A stretch of 64,000 nucleotides of DNA from an uncultured Candidatus Saccharibacteria bacterium. GTDB lineage: Bacteria > Patescibacteriota > Minisyncoccia > Phycocordibacterales > UBA9973. The DNA is taken from NCBI GenBank assembly GCA_964423445.1, contig CAYREQ010000001.1:1732-65731 (forward strand), in the 5' to 3' direction. The translations under genes were made by a program, and so were the position numbers. Positions 2,723 to 35,120 of the stretch are shown piece after piece. The notes beneath the pieces were generated by a model, which did not search any database, was not told the origin of the DNA, and saw only the letters and a program-made list of their open reading frames with translations. Position 1 is the stretch's first letter; the number at the start of each line of letters is the position of its first letter.

Positions 2723-2908
2723 ATGATGACAGATTTTGAAAAAGCTAAACAAATACAAAAGATATATGATGAAGCCATCAAGAAATTGGACGCGCTTGAA
2801 GGAGAAAAGAAGCAAATTACTAAAAAATATATAGAAGAGCTTGAAGCTCAAAAGATTGAAGCGATTCGGGCATCAATCGAATTATTATTTGATAAAAAAG
2901 AAGAATAA
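2723..2908 (+). CDS. small coiled-coil hypothetical protein
   Basis: 61-aa ORF rich in K, E and Q, tightly spaced before the next gene. Confidence 0.3.
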   Translation: MMTDFEKAKQIQKIYDEAIKKLDALEGEKKQITKKYIEELEAQKIEAIRASIELLFDKKEE

Positions 2909-2913
2909 TTTTA

Positions 2914-4651: not shown

Positions 4652-7375
4652 ATGCCACCATTAAATAAATTCACAACTAAAGCCAAAGACGCGATAAAAA
4701 AAGCTCATGAGCTTGCTATTGAACGTGGAGTAAATCACGTTTCTTCTCTGCACTTACTCGCAGCATTACTACTCGCAGAAGAATCCATAGTAAATTCTAT
4801 TTTAGACAAGCTCGAAATAGACACAATGCTTCTTACTGATTCTGTCTTGGAGTTAATAGAATTACCAGAATCTCACAGCACTATTTCACCTGCATACCAA
4901 ATCTACCTAAACCCAGATTTGGCACAAGTGATAGAGCAGTCAGCCAAGCTCGCTGAATACATGAAAGATGATTTTGTATCTACAGAGCACTTATTTATTG
5001 CAATTCTTGAAGTCACGAGTGAAGCTCGTGAGACACTATCACGATTTAGAATTCACAAAGATTCAGTTGTAAAAGTATTAGAAGAACTTCGTAGACAAAA
5101 TATTACTGACGTGGGTGAGCCAAGAAAATTTAAACTTCTTGTAAAATATACTCGCAATTTAACCAAGCTTGCCAAGGAAGATAAATTAGACCCAGTGATA
5201 GGTCGCGATAGTGAAATACTTCGTATCATGCAGATACTCTCAAGAAGGACAAAAAATAATCCAATTTTAATCGGGGAAGCAGGTACAGGAAAGACAGCAG
5301 TAGTAGAAGGTCTAGCTGAAAGAATTGTAAAAGGAAATGTCCCAGAGTCACTCAAAGACAAAGAGCTCGTGTCTCTAGACCTAGGGCTTCTTGTAGCTGG
5401 TACAAAATATCGTGGAGAATTTGAAGAAAGACTCAAAGGTATAATGAAAGAGATAGAACGCTCAGATGGAAAAGTAATTCTTTTTATTGACGAGATTCAT
5501 ACTATAGTCGGAGCGGGAGGAGCAGAGGGAACTATGGATGCTTCAAATATGTTGAAGCCAGTACTTTCTCGTGGAGAACTTCGAGCTATTGGAGCTACGA
5601 CTTTGCGAGAATATCAAAAACATATTGAAAAAGATCCAGCTTTGGCTCGTCGTTTTCAACCCGTATATATTGATGAACCATCTCTAGATGATGCAATTAC
5701 AATACTTCGTGGTCTAAAAGAAAGATACGAGCTTTTTCACGGTGTTCGTATTACAGACGACGCTATTATTGCTGCAGTAAATCTATCTGCTAGATATATC
5801 ACAAATAGATTTTTACCAGACAAAGCTGTGGACTTGATAGATGAAGCTTCAAGTTCTCTAAAGATAATGCTTGAAAACAAACCTTCTGTCCTAGAAGACG
5901 CACATAGAAAGATAATGAAGCTAGAGATAGAAAAAGAAGCTCTTAAAAAAGAGGTAGCGGTGAGAGGTGCTGACAAGAGTAAACAAAATAAAGAGACTAG
6001 AGAGAAAAATATTGAAATTAAAAATAGATTAAAAGAAGTAGATAAAGAGATAGCCAATCTAAACGAAAAGACAAAAGAAATAGAATTAAAATGGAATAAT
6101 GAAAAAACAATAGTAGCTGAGATTCGCACAATTAAACAAGAATTAGATACTATTCGGTTAGAAGCAGAAGAAGCAGAGATGCGCTCTGATCTTTCTCGGG
6201 TAGCTGAAATACGCTACGGTAAAATTCCAGAACTTAAGAAAGACTTAGACACAAAGCTCGCACGATTAAAGAAGTTACAAAAATCTCGCAGAATTTTGAA
6301 AGAAGAAATCACTGCTGAAGATATAGCAGAAGTCGTAGCTCGCTGGACTGGTATACCACTCACTAAGATGCTAGAAGAAGAAAGAGAGAAGCTTGAGAAA
6401 ATGGAAGAAGAATTAAAGAAGAGAGTAGTAGGCCAAGATGGAGCTATAAGAAAAGTCGCAGATGTCATAAGGCGCTCTCGTGCTGGTATAGGAGACCCAA
6501 ATAGGCCAATCGGCTCATTTATATTCTTGGGTCCGACTGGTGTAGGAAAGACAGAGCTCACAAAAGCTTTGGGGCAATTTATGTTCAATGATGACAAAGC
6601 TATAATTCGAGTGGATATGTCTGAGTACATGGAGAGGCATTCAATATCAAAACTCATTGGTTCACCACCAGGGTATGTAGGTTACGATGAAGCAGGACAA
6701 CTCACAGAGTCAGTAAGGCATAGACCTTATGCAGTGATACTTTTTGATGAGATTGAAAAAGCTCATCCTGAAGTTTTCAATATGCTACTCCAAGTATTGG
6801 ATGAAGGTAGATTAACTGATGGGAAAGGTAGAATAGTAAATTTCAAAAATACTATTATAATACTAACTTCAAATATCGGTTCACAATTCGTAGAAAAGAT
6901 GGAATCAGTTGGTTTTTCAAATAATACTGACAAGCAAAACTACTCAAACATGAAAGATAAAATCACAGACACCTTGAAAGAACATTTTCGTCCTGAGTTC
7001 TTAAATAGGTTAGATGAGACCATAGTCTTTGATATTTTGTCTGAATCTGCAATAAAAGAAATTGTAAAACTTCGAGTAAGAGTAGTACAAGACCGCTTAC
7101 TAGCCAAAGGTATAAGTTTTGAAATAGCAGATGAAGCCTTCTCTTATCTTGCAAAAGAAGGATATGATCCACACTATGGTGCAAGACCTCTAAATCGTCT
7201 AATTCAAAATAAAATTTTAAATCCCGTGGCTTCATACATTATTTCTAACAAAGTTAAAAAAGGAGATAAGATTGTAGCAAGTATAAAGAATGGGGAACTC
7301 ATAATAGAAAACAAAAAAGGACAAGGAGGCAAAATCAAAAGTCCAATACAAATAAGACCAAGCTCAAAGGTCTAA
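4652..7375 (+). CDS. clpB: ATP-dependent chaperone ClpB (AAA+ class I Clp ATPase)
   Basis: 907 aa with two Walker A boxes ([29 protein letters not shown]), a long coiled-coil middle domain between them, and a Clp N-domain. Confidence 0.9.
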
Positions 7376-7479: not shown

Positions 7480-7565
7480 GCGTCGGTGGTAGAGTGGTCA
7501 ATTACAACAGACTGTAAATCTGTCGCCTCCGGGCTACGAAGGTTCGAATCCTTCCCGACGCACCA
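7480..7565 (+). tRNA. tRNA-Tyr (anticodon GTA), long variable arm, CCA encoded
   Basis: Acceptor GCGTCGG/CCGACGC; anticodon stem ACAGA/TCTGT with loop CTGTAAA; long variable arm; T-arm GAAGG-TTCGAAT-CCTTC. Confidence 0.85.
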
Positions 7566-11670: not shown

Positions 11671-13071
11671 ATGGATGCATTTTTAGAAGGTGTTGAGGAG
11701 GGAGTAATAGAATACTGGCCTTGGCTTCTTGCTACAGTAGCTCTCTTTTTCCTTTGGTATTACGATATGCTGTATGGTTTAGTAAAAGGCATTCTTCCAC
11801 TGATAGGAACTTTTTTTCTCGGATGGGTAGCATATAAAATGTGGATTCACTACATAAGACAGGATTTCATTTCCGGTATTGATTTTGTTTTACTTGAAAT
11901 TATTCCTCCTCGTGAAGTATTACGTTCACCAAAAGCCATGGAGCTTTTTATCACAAATGCTCTTTATCACTGGAGTTACAAAGGAGGTAAAGAAGAGTAT
12001 TGGCAAGGAGCTGTCTGGTTCTGGTTTTCTTTGGAGATAGCATCCATAGATGGACAAGTACATTTTTATATTCGTACGCCTACCCGTATTAGAGGATTGA
12101 TTGAGACACAAATGTACGCTCAATATCCTCAATCACAAATAAGAGAAGTTCCAGACTATACTTTGGCAGTCGACAAGATAAGTCCTGAGAGTGCATGGAT
12201 GGGCTGGGGTTGTGAATTTGGTTTATTAAAACCAGAGGCTTATCCACTAAAAACTTATGTAGACTTCGGTCTAGATAAAGATCCAAAAGAAGAATATAAA
12301 GTAGATCCTATTTCTCCAATAGTAGAGCTTTTTGGTTCTATAAAAAAAGGTGAACAAATGTGGTTGCAGATTGTCATCACTCCAGTAAAGAAAATGTATC
12401 ATACAAAAGGTACTTGGTTTGGTACGCATGATTGGGTCACGGAATCTAGAAATGAATTATTTAATTTGCTCAAAGATTATACCAGTGTTAAACAACGTCC
12501 AGGTGATCCAGGCAACTCTCGAGTGGAAGTTCGTGTACCTGCATACTTAGACAGAGCCACAAAGGCTATGAGTGCTAAGACTTCAAAAATTGGTTTTGAG
12601 ACAGGCATCAGAGTGATGTATGTAGCTAAAAAAGAAGCTTGGGATATGAGTAGCCGGAGAAACATCCGTCTTATCTTCCGTCAGTATGATGCACCAGACG
12701 TAAATGGATTAGTGCGTATGAATTCCACACAGGCAGATGCATACAGTGGACTCTTTGGACTTTCACAAGAAAAAGTGATGCTATTAGCAGATAGAATGCT
12801 TCATGAATATCGTGAAAGGGGATTCTTTCATCTTCCTATGAGGCATCATTTATTTAACAAGCATGCACTTAGTTGGCCATTTGAAAGTATTATTGCTGGT
12901 TCAGTCTTAATCCAACCTTTCTTTTTGCCATATTTCCACCCACAAACTTTCGTTTTAAATACAGAAGAAATAGCCACTCTTTGGCATTTCCCTGGTCAGA
13001 TATTAAAAGTTCCTACACTCGAACGTATCGAGTCTACAGACGCTTCTCCTCCTACAAATTTACCAACTTAA
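11671..13071 (+). CDS. hypothetical membrane protein (two N-terminal TM helices plus a large soluble domain)
   Basis: 466-aa ORF with good coding character; no recognisable motif. Confidence 0.45.
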   Translation: MDAFLEGVEEGVIEYWPWLLATVALFFLWYYDMLYGLVKGILPLIGTFFLGWVAYKMWIHYIRQDFISGIDFVLLEIIPPREVLRSPKAMELFITNALYHWSYKGGKEEYWQGAVWFWFSLEIASIDGQVHFYIRTPTRIRGLIETQMYAQYPQSQIREVPDYTLAVDKISPESAWMGWGCEFGLLKPEAYPLKTYVDFGLDKDPKEEYKVDPISPIVELFGSIKKGEQMWLQIVITPVKKMYHTKGTWFGTHDWVTESRNELFNLLKDYTSVKQRPGDPGNSRVEVRVPAYLDRATKAMSAKTSKIGFETGIRVMYVAKKEAWDMSSRRNIRLIFRQYDAPDVNGLVRMNSTQADAYSGLFGLSQEKVMLLADRMLHEYRERGFFHLPMRHHLFNKHALSWPFESIIAGSVLIQPFFLPYFHPQTFVLNTEEIATLWHFPGQILKVPTLERIESTDASPPTNLPT

Positions 13072-17452: not shown

Positions 17453-18697
17453 ATGAATATCTTGGGTATTTTTTCTAAAGTAAAAAAGAAAGATGAGCTA
17501 GTATTAGTTTTTGATATTGGTTCTTCGTCTGTAAAAGCAGCACTTTTTTATATACGAGAATCTGGTGTACCAAAGATTATTACTTCTATCCGTGAACCGA
17601 TAATACTCGAAGATAAGGTAGACCCAGATAGATTTTTACTTTTGACAATTCAAGCACTAGAGACTGTAACTAATAAAATTTACACCAAAGGCCTAGGTGC
17701 TCCATCAAGGATTTTCTGTATATTTTCTTCACCGTGGCATATTTCTCAGACTAGAGTTATCAGCTATAAACAAGACACACCTTTTGTATTTACTTCAAAA
17801 TTGTCCGAAGAGTTGATACAAAAAGATATAGCCGTCCTCAAAGAAAATTATTTAAAAAAGTATTCAGATGCTGATCACGCTCTCCGTTTGATTGAATTAA
17901 AAAATATTAAAATAGTTTTAAATGGTTATGAGACTATAAAACCACTCGGTAAAAAAGCCAAAGAAGTCGAGATGACTATCTTTGTATCAATGAGTGAAGA
18001 AAAAGTATGTAAAAAAATAGAAGAAACCATAGCCAAACATTTTACTTCTAGCGCTATTAGTAGTGAAATAAAATTCTCTCCATTTACATTGGCAGCCTTC
18101 ACTATAATTCGTGATTTATTTGTAGATCAAAATAATTTCCTTTTGATAAATATCGGGGGAGAAATCACGGACATTTCAATGATAAAAAATGATATTTTAC
18201 GAGAGTCCACTTCTTTCCCACTCGGCATAAACTTTATGATACGTGAGGTCGCCTCTACTATGAAATGCTCTCTCGCCGAAGCCAAGTCCCTCATTTCTCT
18301 CTTCAAGGATGGGCACGCCGCACCAAATACATTAAATACATTAGAGCCAGCTATAGCCAAGCTAAAGATAGAATGGCTAAAGAAATTCCAAGAATCCCTA
18401 GCAAATTTGTCCAATGATATTTCCATACCAGCCTTTGTGTACACAACTGTAGACAAAGACTTGGCAGAATTTTTTGCTGAAATAATAAAGACTGAGCAAT
18501 TCAACCAATACACTCTCACAGAATCAAAATTCCAAATTGTATTTTTAAATATTGAAAATTTACATGGTATAGCAGAATTTGGGGAAGACTCCATGTTTAA
18601 TGCTTTCCTCACTATTGATGGAGCTTATATAAACCGCTTTTTAGCAAAAGTTCCCGAGCGTAACTTTGAAAAATTCTTACTACAAGATAAAATATAA
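17453..18697 (+). CDS. actin-like ATPase of the FtsA/PilM/MreB superfamily (not the divisome ftsA, which is at 62233)
   Basis: N-terminal VLVFDIGSSSVKAAL phosphate-1-like motif and a later GGEITDISMIKN block. Confidence 0.45.
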   Translation: MNILGIFSKVKKKDELVLVFDIGSSSVKAALFYIRESGVPKIITSIREPIILEDKVDPDRFLLLTIQALETVTNKIYTKGLGAPSRIFCIFSSPWHISQTRVISYKQDTPFVFTSKLSEELIQKDIAVLKENYLKKYSDADHALRLIELKNIKIVLNGYETIKPLGKKAKEVEMTIFVSMSEEKVCKKIEETIAKHFTSSAISSEIKFSPFTLAAFTIIRDLFVDQNNFLLINIGGEITDISMIKNDILRESTSFPLGINFMIREVASTMKCSLAEAKSLISLFKDGHAAPNTLNTLEPAIAKLKIEWLKKFQESLANLSNDISIPAFVYTTVDKDLAEFFAEIIKTEQFNQYTLTESKFQIVFLNIENLHGIAEFGEDSMFNAFLTIDGAYINRFLAKVPERNFEKFLLQDKI

Positions 18698-18699
18698 TT

Positions 18700-20037
18700 A
18701 TGCCTAAAAATTTATTTCAAGACATGGTAAAGGTAAAAAATTCTTCTCCTAAAACTCTCCAAAAAGAGATGGTGAGACCCACTACCGTAAGACAATCTCC
18801 GAGAATGGAAGAAGTAAAAAAATACCCTAGTGTAAAAAAAATTCCTAGGCAAGAATTTTCTCAAAGAGAAATTCCTGAGTACAGAGAATTTAAAGAAAAT
18901 AAAAATACAAAATCTCGCCACGGGCTTTGGTTGGTAGCTTTTATTTCAATAATATTTTTTATCTTTGCTTTGTCTTTTCTTTTTGCTAGGGCTACAGTAA
19001 CAGTAAATCCAAAGGTAAATGATTTTGCCCTAGATAAAAATTGGTCTGCTATAAAAGATATAAATTCAAATGGTCTATCTTTTGATTTAGTCATCATCTC
19101 TGGTGAGGAAGTCAAAAAAGTTTCTGGTGGAGAAGAAAAAGAAGTATCTTTAAATTCCAAAGGTAAAGTTTTTATTTACAATACATTTAGTGCTTTACCT
19201 CAAAAACTTGCAAATAATACAAAGCTCGAAGGTTCAAATGGTAAATTTTACAAGACCAGTAGTGAAGTCACAGTTCCAGGCATGAATATAGATGGCACTG
19301 CTGGGAAAATAGAAGTGGGTATCTTAGGCATGGAAGCAGGGCAAGAGTACAACAGTGAACCCCTTGATTTTACTTTATCTGGGTTTAAGGGAACTCCAAA
19401 ATATTCAAAGTTTTATGGCAGGAGCAACGGAGCAATAACTGGTGGATTTAAGGGGAAAACACTAGTCATAGCTGAAGAAGAGCAACAAAAGGTATTCAAT
19501 GAGCTAAAAGTAGCCTTGAAAGACAAGCTTTTACAAAAAGCTATTGACCAAATTCCAAATGGCTTTATCCTATTTAAAGATGCAGCTTTCTTAAATATAG
19601 ACGAAGAAGGTGTCGAATTTACCTCAGAAGACGGTAATACTCCAGTAAAAGTAAAAGGCACACTTTATGGTTTTTTGTTTAGTGAAAAAGAGTTGACTAC
19701 AAAAATTGCCAAAGACAGTATAGCCAATTATGACGATAGCGAAGTATATATACCAAATATCAAAGACTTAGTTTTTACTATGATTGATAAAGACATATCA
19801 TTTAGTGATGTCCAAAATATAAATTTCAATTTGTCTGGTAATGCCAAGGTCGTCTGGAAGTTTGATGACGCTAGTTTTGCTGGTTCGCTTTTAGGTAAAT
19901 CAAAAAATGATTTCAATCAAATATTATCAGAATATCCTCACGTGGATTCTGCCGAGCTAGAGCTCAGTCCATTTTGGGTCAGATCAATACCAAGTAAATT
20001 AAAAGACATAAAGGTAATAGTAAATTATCCAAAATAA
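18700..20037 (+). CDS. hypothetical bitopic membrane protein (about 85-aa basic cytoplasmic N-terminus, one TM, large extracytoplasmic domain)
   Basis: TM segment HGLWLVAFISIIFFIFALSFLFA; begins 3 nt after the actin-like ORF, so likely co-transcribed. Confidence 0.4.
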   Translation: MPKNLFQDMVKVKNSSPKTLQKEMVRPTTVRQSPRMEEVKKYPSVKKIPRQEFSQREIPEYREFKENKNTKSRHGLWLVAFISIIFFIFALSFLFARATVTVNPKVNDFALDKNWSAIKDINSNGLSFDLVIISGEEVKKVSGGEEKEVSLNSKGKVFIYNTFSALPQKLANNTKLEGSNGKFYKTSSEVTVPGMNIDGTAGKIEVGILGMEAGQEYNSEPLDFTLSGFKGTPKYSKFYGRSNGAITGGFKGKTLVIAEEEQQKVFNELKVALKDKLLQKAIDQIPNGFILFKDAAFLNIDEEGVEFTSEDGNTPVKVKGTLYGFLFSEKELTTKIAKDSIANYDDSEVYIPNIKDLVFTMIDKDISFSDVQNINFNLSGNAKVVWKFDDASFAGSLLGKSKNDFNQILSEYPHVDSAELELSPFWVRSIPSKLKDIKVIVNYPK

Positions 20038-23783: not shown

Positions 23784-24206
23784 ATGGCAACAGAGAATAA
23801 AGAAAAATACATAGAGGCTATAGGACGAAGAAAAACTTCTACTGCTCGCGTACGAATCACACCATCAGCAAAAGCTCATTTTGTTGTAAACGATTTAGAT
23901 TCAAAAGATTATTTTAAAACAGACGAACAACGCCGTCTTATCTTGGATCCTATGACAAAAGATTTAGTTGAAGGACAAGACAAGACTATAAAATGGAGTG
24001 TAGAAGCTCATGTTTCAGGTGGAGGAATTCACTCTCAAGCTGAAGCTATTCGCCATGGACTTTCAAGAGCATTGGTAAAATCAGATGAAAGTCTACACAG
24101 TGGACTAAAATCTCTTGGTTTCCTAAAACGTGATCCTAGAGCAAAAGAACGCCGTAAATTCGGACTCAAGAAAGCTCGTAAAGCACCAAAGTGGTCAAAA
24201 CGTTAA
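23784..24206 (+). CDS. rpsI: 30S ribosomal protein S9
   Basis: GRRKTSTARVRI...ERRKFGLKKARKAPKWSKR. Confidence 0.9.
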   Translation: MATENKEKYIEAIGRRKTSTARVRITPSAKAHFVVNDLDSKDYFKTDEQRRLILDPMTKDLVEGQDKTIKWSVEAHVSGGGIHSQAEAIRHGLSRALVKSDESLHSGLKSLGFLKRDPRAKERRKFGLKKARKAPKWSKR

Positions 24207-24228
24207 AACATTTTCTAAAAAGAAAGTC

Positions 24229-24268
24229 AAAAAGGATATTTATTATAGTAATAAATATCCTTTTTGTT
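24229..24268. terminator. perfect 17-bp AT-rich palindrome aaaaggatatttatta-tag-taataaatatccttttt after rpsI
   Basis: Hairpin seen in the sequence, flanked by A/T runs on both sides (bidirectional). Confidence 0.6.
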
Positions 24269-24452: not shown

Positions 24453-24827
24453 ATGGAACAAAAGATAATCTTAGAATGGTCAAAATTGCTTCAGTTAACT
24501 GCAAGTGAGGTAGCAAAAATAGAAGAAAAAGCTGGTGTTTTTCGTATATCTAAAAAAAATAGTGATGGAAAATACTATATTGTTTTTGTTGGGAGTGGAG
24601 ATAATTTAAAATCCGAACTACAAGGTATAGAGTCAGGTCAAAAAGGAAATGAGTTACTAACCTTAATACTGGCCCAGGAAGGACCATTTGCTTTTAAGTA
24701 TGCTGTGGTTGAAGAAGCAAAAATTAGAAAGGCAATAGAAAAGCAAATGTATAATCATTATGCACCTATAGCTAATCAAGGAAGTGAGCCAGAAAGTAAT
24801 CTAGATATTAAAGCTAATTTGAGTTAA
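24453..24827 (+). CDS. hypothetical protein, 4 nt upstream of the proteasome-like gene
   Basis: 124-aa ORF with a VFVGSGDNLKSEL block; no recognisable family. Confidence 0.4.
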   Translation: MEQKIILEWSKLLQLTASEVAKIEEKAGVFRISKKNSDGKYYIVFVGSGDNLKSELQGIESGQKGNELLTLILAQEGPFAFKYAVVEEAKIRKAIEKQMYNHYAPIANQGSEPESNLDIKANLS

Positions 24828-24830
24828 AAA

Positions 24831-25496
24831 ATGACACTAGTTATAGGCTTAAAAGCAAAAGATGGGATAGTGATTGCCTCAGACAGTCGGGCTAGTTCTG
24901 ATATAACTAGTAATGATAAAGTACAAAAAATATTTCAACTAGGAGAACATAGTGCGATTGGTATAGCAGGTGATGGAGGTTTGGCAATGTATTTTTTAGA
25001 CCAAATTAAACCCGGCCTTAATCATGGTACAGGCATTGTAGATTTAGCTGAACAAATAAGGAAAAAAGGTAAAGAATTATTTAATGATTATTTTCAACAT
25101 CTTCAACCAAGCGAGCGTCCTTCTCTGCAGTTATTATTAATTGGCTACACTACTGACGCAAAGGCAGAAATGTATACTCTGCGAAGTACAGATAATTTTG
25201 TGCCGCGAAAAGGTGTGACTGGTTTTGAATCTATAGGTATTCCATATTTTGCTGATTATTTACTGAATCGTCTGTATGAACCTGATATAAAAACTGAGGC
25301 AGGAGTAGAACTTTGTGTTCTATGTATTGAAGAGACAAATTCTCAGCATAGAGGGGTTGGAGAGGCCAACAGAGTGGCTACTTTTTCAAATGTGGCTCCA
25401 TTTGTAGAATTACCCGAATCAAAAATAAAAGAGTTGAGAGAGAAAGCTCAGAAATTCCAAATTGGACAAAAAAGCAAGTTTTACCCAGAAGAATAG
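24831..25496 (+). CDS. Ntn-hydrolase of the proteasome beta-subunit / HslV superfamily (Thr directly after the initiator Met)
   Basis: MTLVIGLKAKDGIVIASDSRAS...KVQKIF places Thr1, Asp17 and Lys32/33 as in 20S beta subunits and HslV; a later SAIGIAGDGG block also fits. Confidence 0.6.
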   Translation: MTLVIGLKAKDGIVIASDSRASSDITSNDKVQKIFQLGEHSAIGIAGDGGLAMYFLDQIKPGLNHGTGIVDLAEQIRKKGKELFNDYFQHLQPSERPSLQLLLIGYTTDAKAEMYTLRSTDNFVPRKGVTGFESIGIPYFADYLLNRLYEPDIKTEAGVELCVLCIEETNSQHRGVGEANRVATFSNVAPFVELPESKIKELREKAQKFQIGQKSKFYPEE

Positions 25497-25634: not shown

Positions 25635-26225
25635 ATGAATGATGAAGAAATAAAACCTGAACCCGAAGAAGTAGAGGATGACGTCGTCGAATTTGAGTTC
25701 AATGATGACGGTGAAGAGGATTTGAAAAAGACTCTAAAAAAGCTTCGCTTGGATTTAAAAGTAGCAAAAAAAGAAAAAGAAGAATATCTGACAGGTTGGC
25801 AAAAAGAGCGAGCTGATTTTGCTAATTATAAAAAGAGCGAAGATGACAGAAAGGGAAATTATAGCGAGAGCTTAAGAGAGCATATACTTACTCGATTTTT
25901 GACGGTAGCTGATAGCTTTAATATGGCTTTTTCAAATCGTGAAGCTTGGGAAAAAGTAGATCCAAATTGGCGTACAGGTGTGGAGTATATCTACTCTCAA
26001 CTAAACAGTGTTTTTGAGGAATATGGAGTAAAAGAGATAGGAAAAGAGGGAGAAAATTTTGATCCAAATATACATGAATCTATAGAGACAGTGGAGACAG
26101 ATAAAAAAGAAAATAACCACAAGATAGCTAAAGTAATTCAAAAAGGTTACAAGATAGGTGATAGAGTCATGCGCCCAGCTCGGGTAAATGTATTCGAGTT
26201 TAAAGATGGAGAAAACACAAAATAA
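25635..26225 (+). CDS. grpE: nucleotide exchange factor GrpE
   Basis: RERADFANYKKSEDDRK coiled-coil region and the C-terminal KGYKIGDRVMRPARVNV beta-domain. Confidence 0.85.
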   Translation: MNDEEIKPEPEEVEDDVVEFEFNDDGEEDLKKTLKKLRLDLKVAKKEKEEYLTGWQKERADFANYKKSEDDRKGNYSESLREHILTRFLTVADSFNMAFSNREAWEKVDPNWRTGVEYIYSQLNSVFEEYGVKEIGKEGENFDPNIHESIETVETDKKENNHKIAKVIQKGYKIGDRVMRPARVNVFEFKDGENTK

Positions 26226-27909
26226 AATCTGCCAGAGCTGTAAGAAAGATTTCGTTGTAGAGCCGGAAGATTTTTCATTTTATGAAAAGATAAAAGTGCC
26301 ACCCCCGACTCTGTGTCCGGAATGCAGACAGCGTCGTCGCTATGCTTGGAGAAATGAACGTACTTTATATCGCCGACCTTGTGATTTATGCGGAAAGAGT
26401 ACGGTGACTATTTATTCTCCAAATAAACCACATAAAGTTTATTGTAATACTTGCTGGTGGAGTGATGGGTGGGATCCTTCTTCTTATGGCGTAGATTTTG
26501 ATTTCAATCGTCCGTTTTTTGAACAATTTCACGAGCTACAGCTTCGCGTGCCTCGTATGGCTTTGCTAAACAAGAATAGTACAAATTCCGAATATACAAA
26601 TCACTCCGCGAATAATAAAAATGCATATCTGTCTTTTGCTATTTTTGATAGCGAAAATATTTCTTACAGTACTTGGATTATGAAAAATTCTTACGACTGC
26701 ATGGACTGTAGTTTCATAAATGAAAAAGGTGAAAGACTATATGAGTGTATAGACTCCAGAACTTCATATCAATGCCAGTACGGCATGTTTCTCAAAGATT
26801 GTTCTAGTTGTTTTTATTGTTATGATGCCCGTGGCTCCAACGATTGTTTTATGTCTACAAATTTGCGAAACAAGAGTTATGTATTTAGAAATACTCAGCT
26901 TACCCGCGAGCAATATTTAGAAAAAATAAAGGCTATTGATTTTTCTTCATTTAAAATTAGGGCTGAGTTGGAAAAAGAATTTAAAGAATTAATAGAAAAA
27001 CAAGCAGTTCACCGCTATGTTGTTAGCGAGAGAAATGTGAATTCAATTGGATCATTGATATATGATTGTAAGAATATTTTTAATGCTTTTGAGCTCGAGA
27101 GGAGTGAAAATGGAAAAAATATTTATGGTGGACTCGAGCTTAAAGATTGTATGGATATTTATCATGCTGGATTTAACACCACCGAGCTTTGTTATGAATT
27201 ACACGGATGTACTAGGCTTTCAAACTGCCAATTTTGCCACCTTTGCTATGACAATATGAATGTGATGTACAGTGATACTTGCCAGAATAGTCAAAATCTT
27301 TTTGGTTGTGTTTCTATAAAAAAAGGTGAGTACATGATTTTTAATAAAAAATACTCGAAAGAAGATTATGAAGCCTTGAAAGAAAAAATTATAGAACAAA
27401 TGAAGACTACAGGGGAATATGGAGAATTTTTTCCACCAAGTATGGCACCAGTTTATTACAACGAAACACAAGGCAATCTTTATATGCCTTTAACAAAGGA
27501 AGAGGTCTTGGCTCGTGGCTGGAATTGGGAAGAAAATATTCCAGGAACTTTTGGCAAAGAGACAATAAAGAGCGAGGATATTCCAGATAAAATAGGTGAT
27601 GTGCCAGATGATTATTTAAAAGAAATTTTTGCCTGCATTGAGTGTTCAAAGAACTATAATCTTACTCAAAATGAGCTTTTGTTTTATAGAAAAGAAACTA
27701 TTCCATTACCCAGAAAATGTCCAAATTGTAGATATAAGAGAAGGTTTGATATGCGCCCAGCGAGAGCTCTATGGCACAGACAGTGTATGTGTGATAAAAA
27801 ACATACAAACCATGAAGGTAGGTGTGAAGTAGAATTTGAGACATGTTATGCTCCAGAACGATCTGAAAAAGTTTATTGCGAAAAGTGTTATCAGCAAGAA
27901 GTTTACTAG
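26206..27909 (+). CDS. large Cys-rich protein with N- and C-terminal zinc-ribbon modules and internal Cys repeats
   Basis: N-terminal CQSCKKDF...FYEKIKVPPPTLCPECRQRRR mirrors C-terminal CIECSKNY...FYRKETIPLPRKCPNCRYKRR; more than 40 Cys in total. The ATG at 26206 overlaps the grpE stop. Confidence 0.5.
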   Translation: MEKTQNKICQSCKKDFVVEPEDFSFYEKIKVPPPTLCPECRQRRRYAWRNERTLYRRPCDLCGKSTVTIYSPNKPHKVYCNTCWWSDGWDPSSYGVDFDFNRPFFEQFHELQLRVPRMALLNKNSTNSEYTNHSANNKNAYLSFAIFDSENISYSTWIMKNSYDCMDCSFINEKGERLYECIDSRTSYQCQYGMFLKDCSSCFYCYDARGSNDCFMSTNLRNKSYVFRNTQLTREQYLEKIKAIDFSSFKIRAELEKEFKELIEKQAVHRYVVSERNVNSIGSLIYDCKNIFNAFELERSENGKNIYGGLELKDCMDIYHAGFNTTELCYELHGCTRLSNCQFCHLCYDNMNVMYSDTCQNSQNLFGCVSIKKGEYMIFNKKYSKEDYEALKEKIIEQMKTTGEYGEFFPPSMAPVYYNETQGNLYMPLTKEEVLARGWNWEENIPGTFGKETIKSEDIPDKIGDVPDDYLKEIFACIECSKNYNLTQNELLFYRKETIPLPRKCPNCRYKRRFDMRPARALWHRQCMCDKKHTNHEGRCEVEFETCYAPERSEKVYCEKCYQQEVY

Positions 27910-27948: not shown

Positions 27949-28479
27949 CTATTTGCCGAAAGATTCAAATAAGAATTTTTTTGTTTCTTCGTCTATCATT
28001 TGAGTGACTATTATCATCATCTCTGTAGTGAGACCCAAATCTTTTTTTATATTCATAAATAGGTGTTCGTAAGGGTAGGGGGAAATCCATGCAGAATTTT
28101 TTAGGCACACAAACCCAGCTTTTTTTAGTAAGTAGCGCAAGCTCTCTCGCTCACTTTTTCGACTCTCTGGTAGGTCTAGTAAAATTATTCTCCAAAACCC
28201 ATCCCAAGTTGTATTTACTAGCATTGTTTCACTCTCCAAAGTCAGGCTATGTATCTTCTTTTTGCCCTCTTTTGTGAGTCTTACAAAGCTCTGGTGTGTA
28301 GAGTCGTGAAGCTCTACAAAACCTCCGTTTACGAGGTTTTTGAGGCTTCTAGCCATGGCGTAGGAGGCTTTTGGGTCTTTACTGTCTTTTAATATTTCGA
28401 TAGGTAAAGCTGGCTTTTCTCCTAATATTTTAAGGATTTTTTTGGAATATTGGCCGTCTTTTTGGTTTTTGCTTGACAT
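27949..28479 (-). CDS. winged-helix transcriptional regulator (PaaX-like?), divergent from dnaK
   Basis: N-terminal wHTH ending ...FVRLTKEGKKKI; the C-terminal block WRIILLDLPESRKSERESLRYLLKKAGFVCLKNSAW has a Cas2/PaaX_C-like pattern. The family call is from memory only. Confidence 0.4.
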   Translation of the reverse strand: MSSKNQKDGQYSKKILKILGEKPALPIEILKDSKDPKASYAMARSLKNLVNGGFVELHDSTHQSFVRLTKEGKKKIHSLTLESETMLVNTTWDGFWRIILLDLPESRKSERESLRYLLKKAGFVCLKNSAWISPYPYEHLFMNIKKDLGLTTEMMIIVTQMIDEETKKFLFESFGK

Positions 28480-28579: not shown

Positions 28580-30490
28580 ATGTCAAAAATAATAGGTATA
28601 GACTTAGGTACAACAAACTCAGCATTTGCAGTAATTGAAGGTGGTGCTCCAAAAATTATAGAAAATATTGAAGGTGCACGTACTACACCTAGTATTGTTT
28701 CCATTGCAAAAAATGGTGACAGACTAGTGGGACTTTTAGCAAAGCGCCAAGCTGTGACAAATCCAGAAAATACTGTCTATGGTATCAAGCGTTTTATGGG
28801 TCACAATTTTGATGATCCAGAAGTTCAGAAAGATTTAAAAAATGCTTCTTTCAAAATTCAAAAATCTTCAAATGGTGGAGTAGAAGTGATGATTGGTGAC
28901 AAGTGGATGCGTCCAGAAGAAATCTCTGCGATGATTTTGGGAAAAATGAAAGCAGACGCTGAAGCAAAGCTCGGAGAAAAAGTCACTGAAGCTGTGATTA
29001 CTGTGCCAGCATACTTCAATGATGCACAGAGAAAAGCTACAAAAGATGCAGGTCAAGTCGCAGGGCTAGATGTAAAGAGAATTATAAACGAGCCGACAGC
29101 AGCAGCTCTCGCATACGGATTTAATAAAAAGAAAAATGAAAAGATAGTAGTGTATGACTTTGGAGGAGGAACTTTTGACGTGTCTGTCCTAGAAATCGGT
29201 GATGATGTCATCGAAGTAAAATCTACAGATGGAGACAGTCACCTCGGAGGTCGTGATATAGATCACAAGATTATCGCTTGGATTGCTGAAGAATATAAAA
29301 AGACTTCAGGCGTAGATGTGCGCAATGACAAGCTCGCACTTCAGCGATTGGATGAAGCAGCAGAAAAAGCAAAGATAGAACTCTCTACTTCCATAGAGAC
29401 AGAAATAAATATTCCATTTATCACTTCTACTGCCGAAGGCCCACAGCACTTACTATTAAAGATGACTCGCGCTCAGCTCGAAGCTTTGGCAGATGAATAT
29501 ATCGCTCGCTCTATTGAAATCACAAAGCGTGCTATGACTGCATCTGGATTCAAGATGGAAGACATGAATGAAATCATAATGGTCGGAGGTCAGACTAGAA
29601 TGCCAAAGATTGTGGAAGAAGTGAAAAAAGTTTTTGGTAAGACTCCAAACCTTTCTATAAACCCTGATGAAGTCGTAGCTCTTGGTGCTGCTGTGCAGGC
29701 TGGAGTACTTCAAGGAGACGTGCGTGATGTTCTACTTCTCGACGTTATTCCACTATCTCTAGGTATTGAGACTCTTGGAGGAGTAGCTACAAAACTAATC
29801 GACAGAAATACTACAATCCCAGCAAATAAATCTCAGACATTTTCTACAGCTGCTGACAATCAAACATCTGTGGAAATACACATTGTCCAAGGTGAAAGAC
29901 CAATGGCAAGTGACAACAAATCTCTCGGCCGATTTATCCTAGACGGAGTGCCACCAGCACCACGAGGTATGCCACAAATCGAAGTATCTTTTGATGTGGA
30001 TGCAAACGGAATATTGAATGTGACTGCAAAAGATAAGGCTAGTGGTAAGACTCAATCTATAAAGATAGAAGCAAGCTCTGGATTGAAAGATGAAGATATA
30101 AAGAAGATGCAACAAGATGCTGAGCTTCATGCTGAAGAAGATAAAAAGAAAAAAGAAGTAGTAGACATGAAGAATACAGCTGAGATGATAATCTATACTG
30201 CAGAAAAAGCTATCAAAGATGCCGGAGATAAAATACCAGCTGAATTAAAGACTGAAGTGGAATCAAAAATTACAGCACTTCGCGGAGTAAAAGACGGCAC
30301 AGATGGTGAAGCTATAAAGAAGGCGACAGAAGAGCTTTCATCTGAGATGTCTAAAATAGGTGAGGCGATGCAAAAAGCTGGAGCTACTCCTGAGACAGGC
30401 ACCACAGCTGAACCACAGCCAGAAGAAGTAAAAGCAAAAGATGCTGAGGTAAGAGATGTTCCACCAGAGGGTGAAGCACCTAAAGCGTAA
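28580..30490 (+). CDS. dnaK: molecular chaperone DnaK (Hsp70)
   Basis: [18 protein letters not shown] and [17 protein letters not shown] motifs; 636 aa. Confidence 0.95.
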
Positions 30491-30570: not shown

Positions 30571-32550
30571 ATGGAAATCCCAGAAGTACCCTTTAATAGA
30601 GAACTTACTTATCTTGGAATCACTACTTACCGAGATAAAAATCAGCTTTTTGGTATCAAGCGCAAAGATAGGCGTCAGCATGTATACCTACTCGGAAAGT
30701 CTGGTACAGGTAAATCTGTCTTGATGTTCAACATGATAATTCAAAACATCCAAAACGGGGATGGAGTTTGCCTTGTAGACCCGCACGGAGAAAACGTAGA
30801 AGCTGTCCTCTCTGCTATTCCTCCACATAGAATCAAAGATGTGATTTATTTCAACCCTGCTGATGCCGAGCACCATATTGGTTTCAATGTGCTCGAGCTA
30901 GTAGACCCACAGTATAAACATCTCGTGGCTTCAGGCCTCATGGGTATTTTCACAAAAATTTGGGCAAACGCATGGAGTGCTCGAATGGAATATATTTTGA
31001 ATAATACTATCTTGGCATTATTAGATACTCCAGGCTCTACAATGCTCGGTATTCCTCGTATGCTCGTAGACAAAGATTATCGTCAAAAAATAATCGCGAA
31101 TTTGAAAGATCCTGTCATCAAAGCTTTTTGGGTGCACGAATATGAAGCATGGCAAGATAAATTCCGAAATGAAGCTATCGCTCCGATTCAAAATAAAGTC
31201 GGACAATTTTTATCTACTTCTATAATCCGAAACGTAGTAGGTCAGCAAAAAAGTACGATAAATATTTTTGACATGATGAACGAAGGAAAGATTTTTCTTG
31301 TAAACGTATCAAAGGGAAGAATCGGTGAAGACAACTCAGCCCTACTTGGAGGTATGATAATTACAAAAATTCAGCTGGCAGCCATGGAGCGTGTGCGTAT
31401 ACCCGAAGATGAGAGAAAGGACTTTTATTTATATGTGGACGAATTCCAAAACTTCGTGACAGATGCTTTTGCTAGTATTTTGTCTGAGGCTAGAAAATAT
31501 CGGTTAAACCTGACAGTGGCACACCAGTACACAGCCCAGCTAGTGTCTGATAAGAGTACGGCTGTGCGCGACGCAGTCTTTGGAAACGTAGGTACTATGA
31601 TAGTGTTTAGAGTCGGCTCTGATGATGCTGAATTCTTGGAAAAAGAATTTGAACCAGAATTTACTCCGAGTGATATTGTAAATCTTCCAAACTACAAAAT
31701 ATATTTAAAATTGATGATAGATGGTATCACATCTCGTCCTTTTTCAGCAAAAACATTGCCACCTATGGTAAAGTCTGGAAATAAAGAAATAGAAGATGCT
31801 GTTATAAATTCTTCTCGTGAGCTTTACTGTAGGTCCAAAGAAGACGTGGAGAGGGAAATAAATGAATGGAGTGGTATGTCTTTAGGTAGTGATACAGATG
31901 GACTAGGTATGGCTACAGGCATAGCAGGGAAATTTCCAGTGATATGCTCTATTTGTAAACAAGAGAGGACTGTTCCTTTCAAACCTGAGCCAGGCAGACC
32001 TGTGTATTGTAAAGATTGTATAGCTAAAATAAAATCTGGCGAGCTGAAACCAATCAAGGGCTCTATAAAACAAATCAACCAAGACCAAGATAAATTTTTC
32101 AAACCTTTGGCCGATCTCGGCATAGAGTTTACTGTAAAAGCCCCAACAGGTACAAAAGAAACTAGGGCAAATGAAGACAGATACCCAGAGAGACAAGACA
32201 ATCACACAGAAAATAAAATAATTCCTAAAAAGAAACCAGCACCTAATCTAGGATTAAAAGAAGCATTGAAAAAAGTTTTTTCTATACCAAAAGCTCCTGC
32301 GCCTACTCCCGCTCCAGTAGTACAAAGACCAGAGCCAGAGCCTGTATCATTGGATGTTTTAAAAAATAAAATAAAAGACATAGTTCCACAAAAAGACAAA
32401 TCTGCAAGTACAGAAGATAAAGATAAATTAAAAAATTTAATAGCCGGAGTCACACCATCAGCTGAAAAACAGGGAACTGAGCCACCACTAACAGCTGGAA
32501 ACATAAAAGAAGTACCCGAAGACGTACTGAGAAAAATTCTAGAGGAATAA
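30571..32550 (+). CDS. P-loop ATPase of the FtsK/HerA/VirB4/VirD4 (type-IV coupling-protein-like) superfamily, with a C-terminal zinc ribbon and Pro-rich tail
   Basis: Walker A LLGKSGTGKS, then CLVDPHGE; Walker B YLYVDEFQNF; TVAHQY..QL; C-terminal CSICK...CKDC; no TM helices. Confidence 0.6.
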   Translation: MEIPEVPFNRELTYLGITTYRDKNQLFGIKRKDRRQHVYLLGKSGTGKSVLMFNMIIQNIQNGDGVCLVDPHGENVEAVLSAIPPHRIKDVIYFNPADAEHHIGFNVLELVDPQYKHLVASGLMGIFTKIWANAWSARMEYILNNTILALLDTPGSTMLGIPRMLVDKDYRQKIIANLKDPVIKAFWVHEYEAWQDKFRNEAIAPIQNKVGQFLSTSIIRNVVGQQKSTINIFDMMNEGKIFLVNVSKGRIGEDNSALLGGMIITKIQLAAMERVRIPEDERKDFYLYVDEFQNFVTDAFASILSEARKYRLNLTVAHQYTAQLVSDKSTAVRDAVFGNVGTMIVFRVGSDDAEFLEKEFEPEFTPSDIVNLPNYKIYLKLMIDGITSRPFSAKTLPPMVKSGNKEIEDAVINSSRELYCRSKEDVEREINEWSGMSLGSDTDGLGMATGIAGKFPVICSICKQERTVPFKPEPGRPVYCKDCIAKIKSGELKPIKGSIKQINQDQDKFFKPLADLGIEFTVKAPTGTKETRANEDRYPERQDNHTENKIIPKKKPAPNLGLKEALKKVFSIPKAPAPTPAPVVQRPEPEPVSLDVLKNKIKDIVPQKDKSASTEDKDKLKNLIAGVTPSAEKQGTEPPLTAGNIKEVPEDVLRKILEE

Positions 32551-32554
32551 AATT

Positions 32555-34012
32555 ATGCCAAAACCAAATCGAGTACAAATAATCAAATATGGTCCACCGC
32601 CACCAGAGCTTCCAGTCTTTGGTAAAGTAAAACCCGAAGAGGTTTCTTTTATTGGGCGTACAAATTATGTGGCTTCTCTCGAGGAGAAAAAATTCGTTTT
32701 TGGTATAAAGCGCATAGATAGGAGAAGACACCTATATATCATAGGAAAGTCTGGAGTAGGAAAGACAAAATTGATGGAGCTTTTTTTACGCCAAGATATT
32801 TCTTATAATCATGGACTTTGCCTGATTGACCCACACGGAGATGTGATAGATGCGATGCTCGATTATATTCCAAGAGAGCGTATAGAAGATGTGTGCATGA
32901 TAGACCCGACAGATGTAGACTTTCCAGCATCTTTCAATCCGCTTGCAAACGTAGATCCGCTTTTTAAATTTCAGCTCACCCAAGGCCTAATCGAGGTATT
33001 TCAAAAGCAATTCGGTGCAAATTGGACACCTAGACTAGAGCACGTATTTCGTTTTACTTGTCTGGCGCTCTTGGATTACCCACATGCGACAATGCGCGGA
33101 ATGATTTCAATGCTGACTGACAGAAATTACAGACAAAAAGTAGTGGAATATATTACTGATGACATGGTAAAGAGATTCTTTGCTATAGAATTCGCTGATT
33201 GGTCTGAAAAATTTGATACAGATGCTATTATCCCACTCGTAAACAAGCTCGGGCAATTCCTCTCTGACCCACTACTCCGAAATATATTTGGACAAAAGCA
33301 AAACAAAATAGATATTTCAAAATTGATGAATGAAGGAAAAATCATTTTGATAAACCTTTCAAAGGGTCGCCTCGGAGAAGAGAATTCTAGTTTCCTAGGC
33401 TCTATGTTTTTGACAAAAATCAAACAAGCCGGAATGGAGCGGGCGAGTATACCCGAAAAAGATCGTGTAGATTTTTATCTTTATGTAGACGAGTTCCAAA
33501 ACGTCGTCACAAATACTTTTGAAAATATCTTATCCGAGGCGCGTAAATATGGACTAAACCTCACCATTGCTCACCAATATGTAGGACAGCTAATTCCAAA
33601 AGTTCAGCAAGCGGTCCTCGGAAATACTGGAGCACTCATATGCTTCCGTGTGGGTGGTGAAGATGCAGTAAAATTAAAACCAGAGTTTGCCCCAATATTC
33701 GATGTGAAAGATATGATAAATTTGGCTGTCGGAGAAATTTATATCAAGATGACAATAGATGGAGAATCTTACGACCCATTTTCTGCTGAGACTTTAAAAA
33801 TTCTTCCACCGACACATCCTTCATATAGAGAAGAAATAATAGCAGCATCTAGAAGAAAATATTCTATATCAAAGGATGATGCAGCAAAATTGATAGCCGA
33901 AGAAGAAGCTACTATCATCCGAAGTGCTGAAGAAAAGAAAATAATTGAAGGAAAAACAAAAGACAATGTGAATAGTTCTCAGTCTTCACAAGAAGCTGAA
34001 CCTATGATATAG
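32555..34012 (+). CDS. paralogous P-loop ATPase of the same FtsK/HerA/VirD4-like family (tandem duplicate, shorter)
   Basis: IIGKSGVGKT, CLIDPHGD, YLYVDEFQNV and TIAHQYVGQL are collinear with the upstream gene (roughly 40-45% identity by eye). Confidence 0.6.
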   Translation: MPKPNRVQIIKYGPPPPELPVFGKVKPEEVSFIGRTNYVASLEEKKFVFGIKRIDRRRHLYIIGKSGVGKTKLMELFLRQDISYNHGLCLIDPHGDVIDAMLDYIPRERIEDVCMIDPTDVDFPASFNPLANVDPLFKFQLTQGLIEVFQKQFGANWTPRLEHVFRFTCLALLDYPHATMRGMISMLTDRNYRQKVVEYITDDMVKRFFAIEFADWSEKFDTDAIIPLVNKLGQFLSDPLLRNIFGQKQNKIDISKLMNEGKIILINLSKGRLGEENSSFLGSMFLTKIKQAGMERASIPEKDRVDFYLYVDEFQNVVTNTFENILSEARKYGLNLTIAHQYVGQLIPKVQQAVLGNTGALICFRVGGEDAVKLKPEFAPIFDVKDMINLAVGEIYIKMTIDGESYDPFSAETLKILPPTHPSYREEIIAASRRKYSISKDDAAKLIAEEEATIIRSAEEKKIIEGKTKDNVNSSQSSQEAEPMI

Positions 34013-34028
34013 TTGTTAAAATAACGTT

Positions 34029-35120
34029 ATGAATAAAGACTATTATGAAATTTTAGGTGTTAATAAGAGTGCCTCCAAAGAAGAAATCAAGAAGGCTTTT
34101 TACAAGTTGGCGCACAAATACCACCCTGATAAAAAAGAGGGAAATGAGGCTAAATTTAAGCAGGTAAACGAAGCTTATCAGGTATTATCTGATGACAGTA
34201 AGCGTTCAAAGTATGACCAATTTGGAGCAGGGTATGAAAATATGGGAGGAAATCCTTATGGAGGTCAGCAAGGTGGCTTTGGCGGTTTTGATTTTTCTGG
34301 TTTCCAAAATGGTTTCGGGGGAGGCGGAGCTGAATTTGATTTTGGAAACTTAAATGATATCTTTAGTGATTTCTTTGGAGGTGGAAGACCACAACAGAGA
34401 CGAGGCCGTGATATATCTACTGAAATACAAATATCATTTGCTGATTCAATTTTTGGTACAAATAGAAAAATTTTAATCACAAAGACATCTAGCTGTCTCA
34501 CATGTAAAGGTTCTGGTGCAAAATCTGGTACAAAGATGGAGACATGCAAGACATGCAATGGTCAAGGAAAAATTCATGAAGCTAAGCGTTCATTTTTAGG
34601 TACTATCTCAAGTACAAAGCTTTGTGATAATTGTCATGGTGCTGGAGAAGTTCCAAAAGAAAAATGTGATACATGTAAAGGCCACGGTGTACTTCGCCGA
34701 GAAGAAGAAGTCTCAATAGCAATTCCAGCTGGTATCAGAAATGGAGAGATGATTCGCATGACAGGTATGGGTGAGGCAGTATCAAAAGGTACCACAGGAG
34801 ACTTGTATATAAAGATAAATGTAATACCACACGCTATATTTGCTCGTGAAGGTCATGACTTGGTAATGAGTTTGAATTTAAAACTTTCCGATGCATTGCT
34901 CGGTATGAAATATCCGATAGAGACATTGGATGGAAAAATAGAAGTGACTATACCAGAAGGTGTATCCATAAATGAAATTCTTCGCGTGCGAGGCAAGGGT
35001 GTACCTATGGGTAAAAACAAGAGAGGAGACTTGCTCATAAAGCTAAACATAAAAATGCCTACAAAAATTTCTCGCAAATCTCGAGAGTTAATAGAAGAAC
35101 TCAAAAAAGACGGCATATAA
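34029..35120 (+). CDS. dnaJ: molecular chaperone DnaJ
   Basis: J-domain with HPD (KYHPDKK); a G/F-rich region; four CxxCxGxG zinc-finger repeats. Confidence 0.9.

Follow-up and report, generated by a model that had tools for sequence, protein, structure and literature searches.

A propeptide-less proteasome homologue and its predicted GIY-YIG-fold neighbor form a conserved gene pair in Candidatus Patescibacteria

The protease and its upstream partner

The DNA considered here (the window, a stretch of 64,000 nucleotides of contig CAYREQ010000001.1 from an uncultured Candidatus Saccharibacteria bacterium) carries two adjacent genes that encode a proteasome-like protein of 221 amino acids (aa), hereafter the protease, and, immediately upstream of it, a 124-aa protein, hereafter the partner. 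Both open reading frames (ORFs) lie where an earlier, sequence-only reading of the same DNA had placed them (Table 1). The TAA stop codon of the partner is followed by AAA and then by the ATG of the protease (24825..24833), which leaves 3 bases between two ORFs that share a reading frame. The protease begins with MTLVIGLKAKDGIVIASDSRAS, such that a threonine directly follows the initiator methionine, as the sequence-only reading had pointed out.

The protease matches the Pfam Proteasome family (PF00227) with an E value of 5.9e-17 and 62.4 bits (gathering cutoff, 22.4), the match spanning protein residues 4 to 171 and model positions 7 to 175 of 189. Its AlphaFold2 (AF2) model, built with 81 homologues in the alignment, has a predicted local distance difference test score (pLDDT) of 89.1 and a predicted template modeling (TM) score of 0.86. 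Structure prediction had been proposed as a check on the proteasome assignment, and the model shows the alpha-beta-beta-alpha sandwich of the proteasome, or N-terminal nucleophile (Ntn), fold, with helices and strands in the order of proteasome subunits (strands S1-S2, with helices H1 at 49 to 62, H2 at 65 to 87, H3 at 138 to 148, H4 at 155 to 172, and H5 at 196 to 217). The 50 top-ranked PDB structures in a Foldseek comparison consist entirely of 20S subunits or their assembly intermediates, with beta subunits on top (TM scores of 0.81 for Rhodococcus beta, 1q5q_H; about 0.8 for Mycobacterium tuberculosis PrcB; and 0.75 to 0.82 for Thermoplasma beta).

The catalytic residues are conserved by position, the second check that had been proposed. 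Of 124 family sequences, 123 keep M1, T2, and L3, and D18, K33, G44, G47, D48, and G49 are invariant. Alignment of the family profile to Thermoplasma beta (a query sequence identical to 3c91_H), together with HMMER alignments to Archaeoglobus fulgidus beta, places T2 on Thr1, D18 on Glu/Asp17, K33 on Lys33, and G47 on Gly47 of the archaeal beta subunit; each of these four positions is thus kept in 123 or 124 of the 124 members. Counted from Thr1, the aspartate is residue 17 and the lysine residue 32, the latter aligning to Lys33 of beta subunits by way of a one-residue gap, which agrees with the 32/33 of the sequence-only reading. These results confirm the 221-aa protein as a proteasome-fold N-terminal-threonine hydrolase with an intact catalytic triad. 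Because the threonine directly follows the methionine, the nucleophile is expected to be bared by methionine aminopeptidase, as shown for Anbu.

As to the kind of proteasome homologue, the protease falls far below the equivalog cutoffs of the NCBIfam models for archaeal beta (TIGR03634, 44.4 bits versus 224), bacterial beta (TIGR03690, 34.8 versus 191.9), and archaeal alpha (39 versus 219, and 34 versus 287 for a second model), and no HslV model is reported for it in NCBIfam at an E value of ≤1. Archaeal alpha and beta chains are matched about equally well, by the protease sequence alone as by the family profile (profile E values against PDB chains of 1.2e-12 for Methanocaldococcus jannaschii alpha and 3.6e-10 for A. 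fulgidus beta). The best 60 PDB sequence matches include no chain of HslV, Anbu, or BPH, and Anbu structures are absent from the best 50 PDB fold matches. In hhalign comparisons, 66 columns of Escherichia coli HslV align with a score of 24 (the query being identical to 1e94_A at 174 of 175 residues), compared with 187 columns and a score of 37 for Thermoplasma beta. The sequence-only reading had proposed an HslV- or 20S beta-like protein; the proteasome-type threonine protease stands, but these comparisons place it nearer to 20S alpha and beta chains than to HslV and class it as neither HslV nor a canonical 20S subunit. A phage origin was rejected, the viral homologues in BFVD being more distant (TM scores of 0.5 to 0.65, E values of about 1e-7) than cellular 20S beta; in PHROGs, there is only a partial match to an “HslV family,” over residues 1 to 65.

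An exhaustive HMMER search of 1.84 billion representative sequences returned 1132 matches at an E value of ≤1e-3, 248 at ≤1e-10, and 32 at ≤1e-30. Matches beyond the core family are 220 to 260 aa long, mostly start with MTL or MSL, and have no propeptide; these wider-clade proteins end in a C-terminal helix with an aromatic motif. Since they score 100 to 270 bits, compared with ≤51 bits for canonical 20S chains, we regard the family as part of a distinct clade of homologues without a propeptide. A named member of the wider clade, from Kosmotoga, lies outside the candidate phyla radiation (CPR).

The 124-aa ORF had been left as an unknown, and the family profile and the AF2 model now identify it as a predicted GIY-YIG-fold protein. 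Among 25 partner sequences, 14 match the Pfam GIY-YIG family PF01541 at an E value of ≤1 (best, 1e-5) and 11 match GIY_YIG_2, whereas the only GIY-YIG-type Pfam match of the window partner itself is to PF19239 (E value of 0.036, 14 bits, below the cutoff of 21). The best PDB match of the partner family profile is the N-terminal endonuclease domain of UvrC (E value of 0.013), through the motifs YVG, E, and P..N, and the AF2 model (pLDDT, 93.9) has the UvrC GIY-YIG domain 1yd2 as its best Foldseek match (probability, 1.00; TMt, 0.69). A profile search returned 179 partner homologues, nearly all of about 122 aa and some named “GIY-YIG nuclease family protein” by NCBI. Family-specific strands at the N and C termini hold the invariant residues W9, L12, P113, and N122. 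A Kunitz-type inhibitor was considered and rejected, with a weak Kunitz_legume match (E value of 0.003, below the cutoff) in 1 of the 25 sequences against GIY-YIG matches in 14.

The six catalytic positions of the GIY-YIG domain (Tyr, Tyr, Arg, His, Glu, and Asn) read YYRHEN in 102 of 124 partners. An intact nuclease is seen, for example, in the pair of the Lloydbacteria protease OGZ06653.1 and its upstream neighbor. In the window partner they read FFEIEN, with four substituted (F30, F45, E55, and I59) and two kept (E96 and N108), and partners of its nearer relatives read YFKHEN or YFE.EN. With a median isoelectric point of 8.3, the family is basic, in contrast to the acidic window partner (5.9) and its closest relative (5.5). 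From the FFEIEN signature and the acidic isoelectric point, the partner of the window lineage has most likely lost nuclease activity and probably nucleic acid binding as well.

Pairing, selection, and distribution

A partner homologue lies directly upstream of the protease gene, on the same strand, in 17 of the 18 loci found in GTDB species genomes; the partner is also upstream in the 18th (L018, 220..588) but contains one in-frame TAA. Six further loci from public assemblies also have the partner (P0250, P0252, P0256, L027, L028, and L031), among them distant relatives that score 221 bits (P0250), 197 bits (P0252), and 164 bits (P0256, cut by the contig end). Gene order, strand, and spacing are kept from relatives with 96% protease identity down to those at 164 bits. 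The spacing ranges from -4 to +7 nt across 21 measured pairs, with gaps of -4, 0, 1, or 2 nt among those seen in other loci, and the TAA AAA arrangement of the window is not conserved. Across the same number of pairs, partner and protease pairwise identities are correlated (r = 0.80). All-against-all clustering and Pfam and PADLOC scans of 90 neighboring proteins from the 18 loci yielded no other conserved neighbor, and none of about 25 loci has an ATPase linked to the pair. The GIY-YIG neighbor is thus obligate and coinherited with this protease subfamily, and this strict synteny bears out the suggestion of the sequence-only reading that the small ORF is a cotranslated partner. A read-through fusion or a propeptide supplied in trans was rejected: the shared frame is confined to the window lineage, and the partner does not end in glycine.

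In a complete Berkelbacteria chromosome (L017, 6001..6772), the protease gene is split by a frameshift; this frameshift and the in-frame TAA of L018 could be decay or sequencing errors. More distant relatives in the wider clade lack the partner (P0257, 154 bits; P0272, 130 bits). The first of these (L019, 3864..11073) sits in a ribosomal protein operon in the order L3, L4, X, L23, L2, and the second (L025, 782..1700) has a serine recombinase, an S24 repressor, and AntA as neighbors. Each of these two protease genes is overlapped at its 3′ end by a short ORF, of 46 or 76 aa. Residues D121, R126, K127, C134, and E220 of the protease are particular to the paired clade.

Selection was assessed from the ratio of nonsynonymous to synonymous substitution rates (dN/dS) between the window and a close relative, L031, whose gene order is rpsI, partner, protease, grpE and whose synonymous divergence (dS) from the window is near 1. 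The protease is 96% identical between the two (dN/dS of 0.022) and the partner 79% (0.11), compared with 67% for rpsI (0.28) and 76% for grpE (0.07). Both genes of the pair are therefore under purifying selection and functional in the window lineage, and the protease is more constrained than either flanking gene. Stronger constraint than on housekeeping neighbors is what one would expect if the protease is a subunit of a large homo-oligomer. Constraint on the partner persists although its catalytic residues are gone, and it should therefore have a role other than DNA cutting.

A word-indexed search gave 222 protease homologues of 216 to 249 aa, of which the named ones belong to Patescibacteria/CPR lineages (Paceibacterota, Staskawiczbacteria, and Lloydbacteria); nr has contained family members, titled “hypothetical protein” or “proteasome subunit,” since 2016. 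The 18 GTDB loci come from a scan of 185,579 species genomes (one genome per GTDB species) that was limited to two nearly invariant peptide motifs. Most of these loci bear CPR names, and a few short contigs bear other labels, which were not verified. The protease family is therefore widespread in CPR metagenomes yet present in few species.

The neighborhoods of the pair are varied. In L029 (3501..8880; = L014) and L021 (2049..6744), it directly follows a type IIG restriction-modification gene of the MmeI type, and an NYN gene is close by; in L023 (36..2414), it lies directly downstream of a TaqI_C protein. The block seen in these three separate lineages may be a larger mobile island. In L028 the pair is found between two serine recombinases, together with Prim-Pol and Toprim genes, an antitoxin-type SocA_Panacea gene is near the pair in L029, and in L027 the pair is upstream of tig-clpP. 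Given this mixture of housekeeping and accessory surroundings, we regard the cassette as a mobile unit.

Setting of the pair in the window

The sequence-only reading had described the pair as downstream of rplM-rpsI. This holds as a position, but the genes do not appear to form one unit. A hairpin directly 3′ of rpsI, between it and the pair, has a near-perfect stem and T-rich tails on both strands and looks like a bidirectional terminator that marks the end of the rplM-rpsI unit, leaving the link between that unit and the pair positional only. The scan that detected it, which is based on consensus, found 3 terminator-like sites in the window against 0.9 ± 1.1 in shuffled sequence; promoter-like sites did not exceed the shuffled expectation (4 versus 5.9), and we claim no promoter. 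The rpsI-partner-protease-grpE neighborhood recurs in one close relative only (L031).

Table 1. Features of the window, in order of position
Feature	Coordinates	Strand	Remarks
Long ORF	2841..4058		One of four of 405 to 466 aa; no Pfam match at E ≤ 1e-5 or 1e-6
ClpB-type Hsp100	4652..7375		907 aa
tRNA	7480..7562		3′ of the ClpB-type gene
Long ORF	11671..13071		As for 2841..4058
Long ORF	17453..18697		As for 2841..4058
Long ORF	18700..20037		As for 2841..4058
rpsI	23784..24206		Upstream of the hairpin
Terminator-like hairpin	24228..24266	+	18-bp stem, 3-nt loop, T-rich tail; consensus scan only
Partner gene	24453..24827	+	124 aa; stand-alone predicted GIY-YIG-fold protein (ORF, family profile, and AF2 model)
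Protease gene	24831..25496	+	221 aa; proteasome-fold N-terminal-Thr hydrolase, no propeptide
grpE	25635..26225		Downstream of the protease gene; grpE-dnaK-dnaJ chaperone cluster
Protein with treble-clef zinc fingers	26188..27909		573 aa; inside the chaperone cluster
PaaX_M-like gene	27949..28479	-	176 aa; inside the chaperone cluster
dnaK	28580..30490		grpE-dnaK-dnaJ chaperone cluster
VirD4/TraD-like coupling-protein ATPase	30571..32550		CxxC-x17-CxxC finger; inside the chaperone cluster
VirD4/TraD-like coupling-protein ATPase	32555..34012		Inside the chaperone cluster
dnaJ	34029..35120		grpE-dnaK-dnaJ chaperone cluster
M1-family aminopeptidase	50920..53400	-	826 aa; ERAP1-like C-terminal domain

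The earlier statement that no hslU, ARC/PAN ATPase, or alpha subunit is visible in the window is correct as far as it goes, and a six-frame search of the window found no second proteasome-like gene, alpha or beta. There is, however, an AAA+ protein of another kind, a ClpB-type Hsp100 located 17 kb from the pair. It scores 1174 bits against TIGR03346, just below the cutoff of 1232, is the sole AAA+ unfoldase-like protein in the window, and is of the disaggregase type rather than HslU, ARC, or PAN.

The pair sits just upstream of grpE, dnaK, and dnaJ, a chaperone cluster that is broken up by four genes. Elsewhere the window encodes another peptide-processing enzyme, the M1-family aminopeptidase, four long ORFs without Pfam matches, and two tRNAs in total, with no rRNA.

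Possible roles and relation to known systems

We think it fairly probable that the partner and the protease form a complex that is independent of any ATPase and in which the partner of the window lineage is a noncatalytic subunit. The locus would then be a self-contained two-gene operon. Methionine aminopeptidase would remove Met1 and bare the Thr1 nucleophile, with Lys33 and Asp17 completing the triad; this activity scheme draws on the invariance of the residues and on analogy with Anbu, BPH, and 20S beta. The protease would be proteolytically active and would oligomerize into a ring. The partner would be made together with the protease by translational coupling and would bind it as a stoichiometric subunit, in the place taken elsewhere by alpha rings or AAA+ caps. 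In the window lineage it would be a noncatalytic subunit with a part in regulation, targeting, or assembly, and the protease would work without a dedicated ATPase. It is the translational coupling, the strict synteny, and the constraint on a catalytically dead partner that point to a complex. Because most partners are basic and retain all GIY-YIG catalytic residues, the ancestral complex probably joined a nuclease or nucleic acid-binding activity to proteolysis.

Several observations weigh against this reading. The residues that support catalysis in 20S beta subunits are largely replaced: the equivalent of Ser129 is I/V137, that of Ser169 is V176, and that of Asp166, at position 173, is aspartate in 96 of 124 members but histidine in the window protease, and activity could therefore be altered. 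(E168 and T169, nearby in H4 and kept across the whole wider clade, may compensate for the missing residues.) The window lineage also departs from the family at the near-invariant positions C134S, G178E, P179A, and T180N, in addition to D173H, and its protease, whose C terminus is the conserved F-Y-P-E motif, lacks the 10- to 15-residue tail that follows F-Y-P-E-D in most members. Finally, the cassette is rare (18 loci in 185,579 species genomes in the pattern-limited scan), and it sometimes adjoins type IIG restriction-modification genes or sits in elements rich in recombinases, a combination that an accessory or conflict role fits better than core proteostasis.

The lineage in which the protease deviates at residues 134, 173, and 178 to 180 and at the C terminus is the same one whose partner has lost the nuclease residues.

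A bolder form of the complex, which we advance only tentatively, is an undescribed protease-nuclease holoenzyme, in which the GIY-YIG subunit would couple the recognition or cutting of nucleic acid to proteolysis in a proteasome-like ring. Such an enzyme could, for instance, remove DNA-bound or cross-linked proteins or act against invading genetic elements, and it would be the first case in which a conserved partner other than an ATPase indicates what a proteasome homologue does.

About as doubtful, in our view, is a conflict module (anti-phage defense, addiction, or toxin control), in which the protease would restrain, or activate by proteolysis, a DNA-cutting effector or toxin in the form of the GIY-YIG protein; the copy in the window, its nuclease dead, would have been domesticated or be decaying. 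The predominance of basic, catalytically complete partners fits such a module, as do the movement of the cassette as a unit among unrelated neighborhoods, its presence in few species, and the company it keeps in some of them (MmeI-type, NYN, and TaqI_C genes in L029/L014, L021, and L023; serine recombinases with Prim-Pol and Toprim in L028; and SocA_Panacea in L029). Most neighbors, however, are housekeeping genes (RecA, RpoB, DnaA, tRNA synthetases, H+-PPase, and tig-clpP), and among the 90 neighbors in 18 loci, TaqI_C, the commonest restriction-modification-type domain, and NYN occur in only 3 each. The window proteins have no significant match to PADLOC 2.0 models, and the partner of one relative has only weak ones (E values of 7e-5 to 4e-3), which cover the region of the GIY-YIG motif. 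Nor is there an evident sensor component, and a protease more constrained than an adjacent ribosomal protein gene, next to a dead partner that is itself constrained, would be unusual for a decaying defense gene.

The adjacency could also be meaningless. Free-standing GIY-YIG genes are often mobile, and a selfish, homing-endonuclease-like gene might have lodged by the protease gene and traveled along with it; the variable neighborhood of the cassette would agree with this. We consider such an origin improbable in view of the fixed order, strand, and spacing in all paired loci, the divergence of the two proteins in step, and a partner that is only about 120 aa long, has no recognizable DNA-binding domain, keeps invariant residues in its N- and C-terminal extensions, and remains under purifying selection after catalytic loss.

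Least probable of all, and very improbable in itself, is the idea of an ordinary core particle of the HslV or 20S type, with its ATPase and/or alpha subunit encoded elsewhere in the genome and the small ORF irrelevant: the triad common to HslV and 20S beta would suit it, as would the ClpB-type AAA+ protein and grpE-dnaK-dnaJ cluster in the window and the position of the L027 pair next to tig-clpP, but ClpB is a disaggregase that is not known to dock to peptidases, the scores for 20S beta and alpha models are far below the cutoffs, no HslV model in NCBIfam matches at an E value of ≤1, hhalign covers little of HslV compared with Thermoplasma beta, H5 is present where the HslV group lacks it (PMC8665760), the window contains no alpha-like paralogue, and no conserved ATPase is near the pair in about 25 loci.

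The biological role of an ATPase-independent complex might lie in quality control and proteostasis, in the processing of nucleic acid-bound proteins, or in genetic conflict. The presence of a proteasome homologue is not new in itself, since annotation pipelines already label such proteins as proteasome-like. Many “orphan” proteasome homologues have been cataloged since 2008, and especially since 2021, and the authors of the most complete survey, by Fuchs, Alva, and Lupas (PMC8665760), found no context or co-occurring gene that hints at function, reporting no informative genomic context for any of 22 new families; the survey mentions neither CPR nor GIY-YIG. As searches of the accessible literature also returned no paper combining GIY-YIG with proteasome-homologue terms, the obligate pairing appears to be undescribed. 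An obligate, coevolving, and translationally coupled partner with a recognizable fold provides a first functional lead for one orphan subfamily, and the natural contrast between members with intact and dead nucleases can separate the structural from the catalytic role of the partner. Retention of a proteasome-type protease at such a low dN/dS (0.02, which is very strong constraint) in some CPR/Patescibacteria, organisms with very reduced genomes, suggests an important and so far unrecognized activity in them.

The pair compares with known systems as follows.

(i) The 20S beta subunits (archaeal PsmB and actinobacterial PrcB) are the best structural match and share Thr1, Asp/Glu17, Lys33, Gly47, and the H1-to-H5 helix and strand order with the window protease, which differs in having no alpha-subunit gene, no propeptide, and neither Ser129 nor Ser169. 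No second proteasome-like ORF was found in the window or in the related loci.

(ii) Anbu, in which the threonine is exposed through removal of the methionine (PMC5666114), is likewise propeptide-less, without a linked AAA+ gene, and equipped with a long C-terminal helix. Unlike the case for Anbu, Anbu-type neighbors are not among the most frequent Pfam families of the 90 neighbors in 18 loci, nor are they present in the window.

(iii) HslV (ClpQ) and BPH share with the window protease an N-terminal Thr as nucleophile and the positions of Lys33 and Gly47. HslV, however, is about 175 aa long, lacks S12 and H5 (H5 being absent from HslV-group proteins generally; PMC8665760), and works with HslU, whereas the window protease has 221 aa and an H5; no hslU adjoins the pair in the window or in the related loci. 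BPH, a compact subunit descended from HslV, has no partner protein and is marked by a long, acidic pore loop (PMC5777263); the corresponding loop of the window protease, between H2 and the next strand (88 to 98, FQHLQPSERPS), is not acidic, and H5 is again present.

(iv) The N-terminal endonuclease domain of UvrC is the closest match, within the GIY-YIG superfamily, to the predicted fold of the partner, and the motifs GVY...YVG...R..H...E...N are found in 102 of 124 family members. The partner differs in standing alone, at about 122 aa, in having family-specific strands at both termini, and in always being paired with a proteasome homologue; in the window copy, F, F, E, and I replace Y, Y, R, and H.

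(v) The protease clade resembles WPH (“widespread proteasome homolog”; reference sequence, WP_040339656.1) and the neighboring group II clusters as described in print. WPH resembles alpha and beta subunits alike, is propeptide-less, and has an H5 predicted to form coiled coils (PMC8665760); the window protease likewise lacks a propeptide, is about equally similar to alpha and beta, has its H5 at residues 196 to 217, and has no linked AAA+ gene. What sets the paired subfamily apart from WPH and the group II families, for which no informative context has been reported, is its obligate GIY-YIG neighbor.

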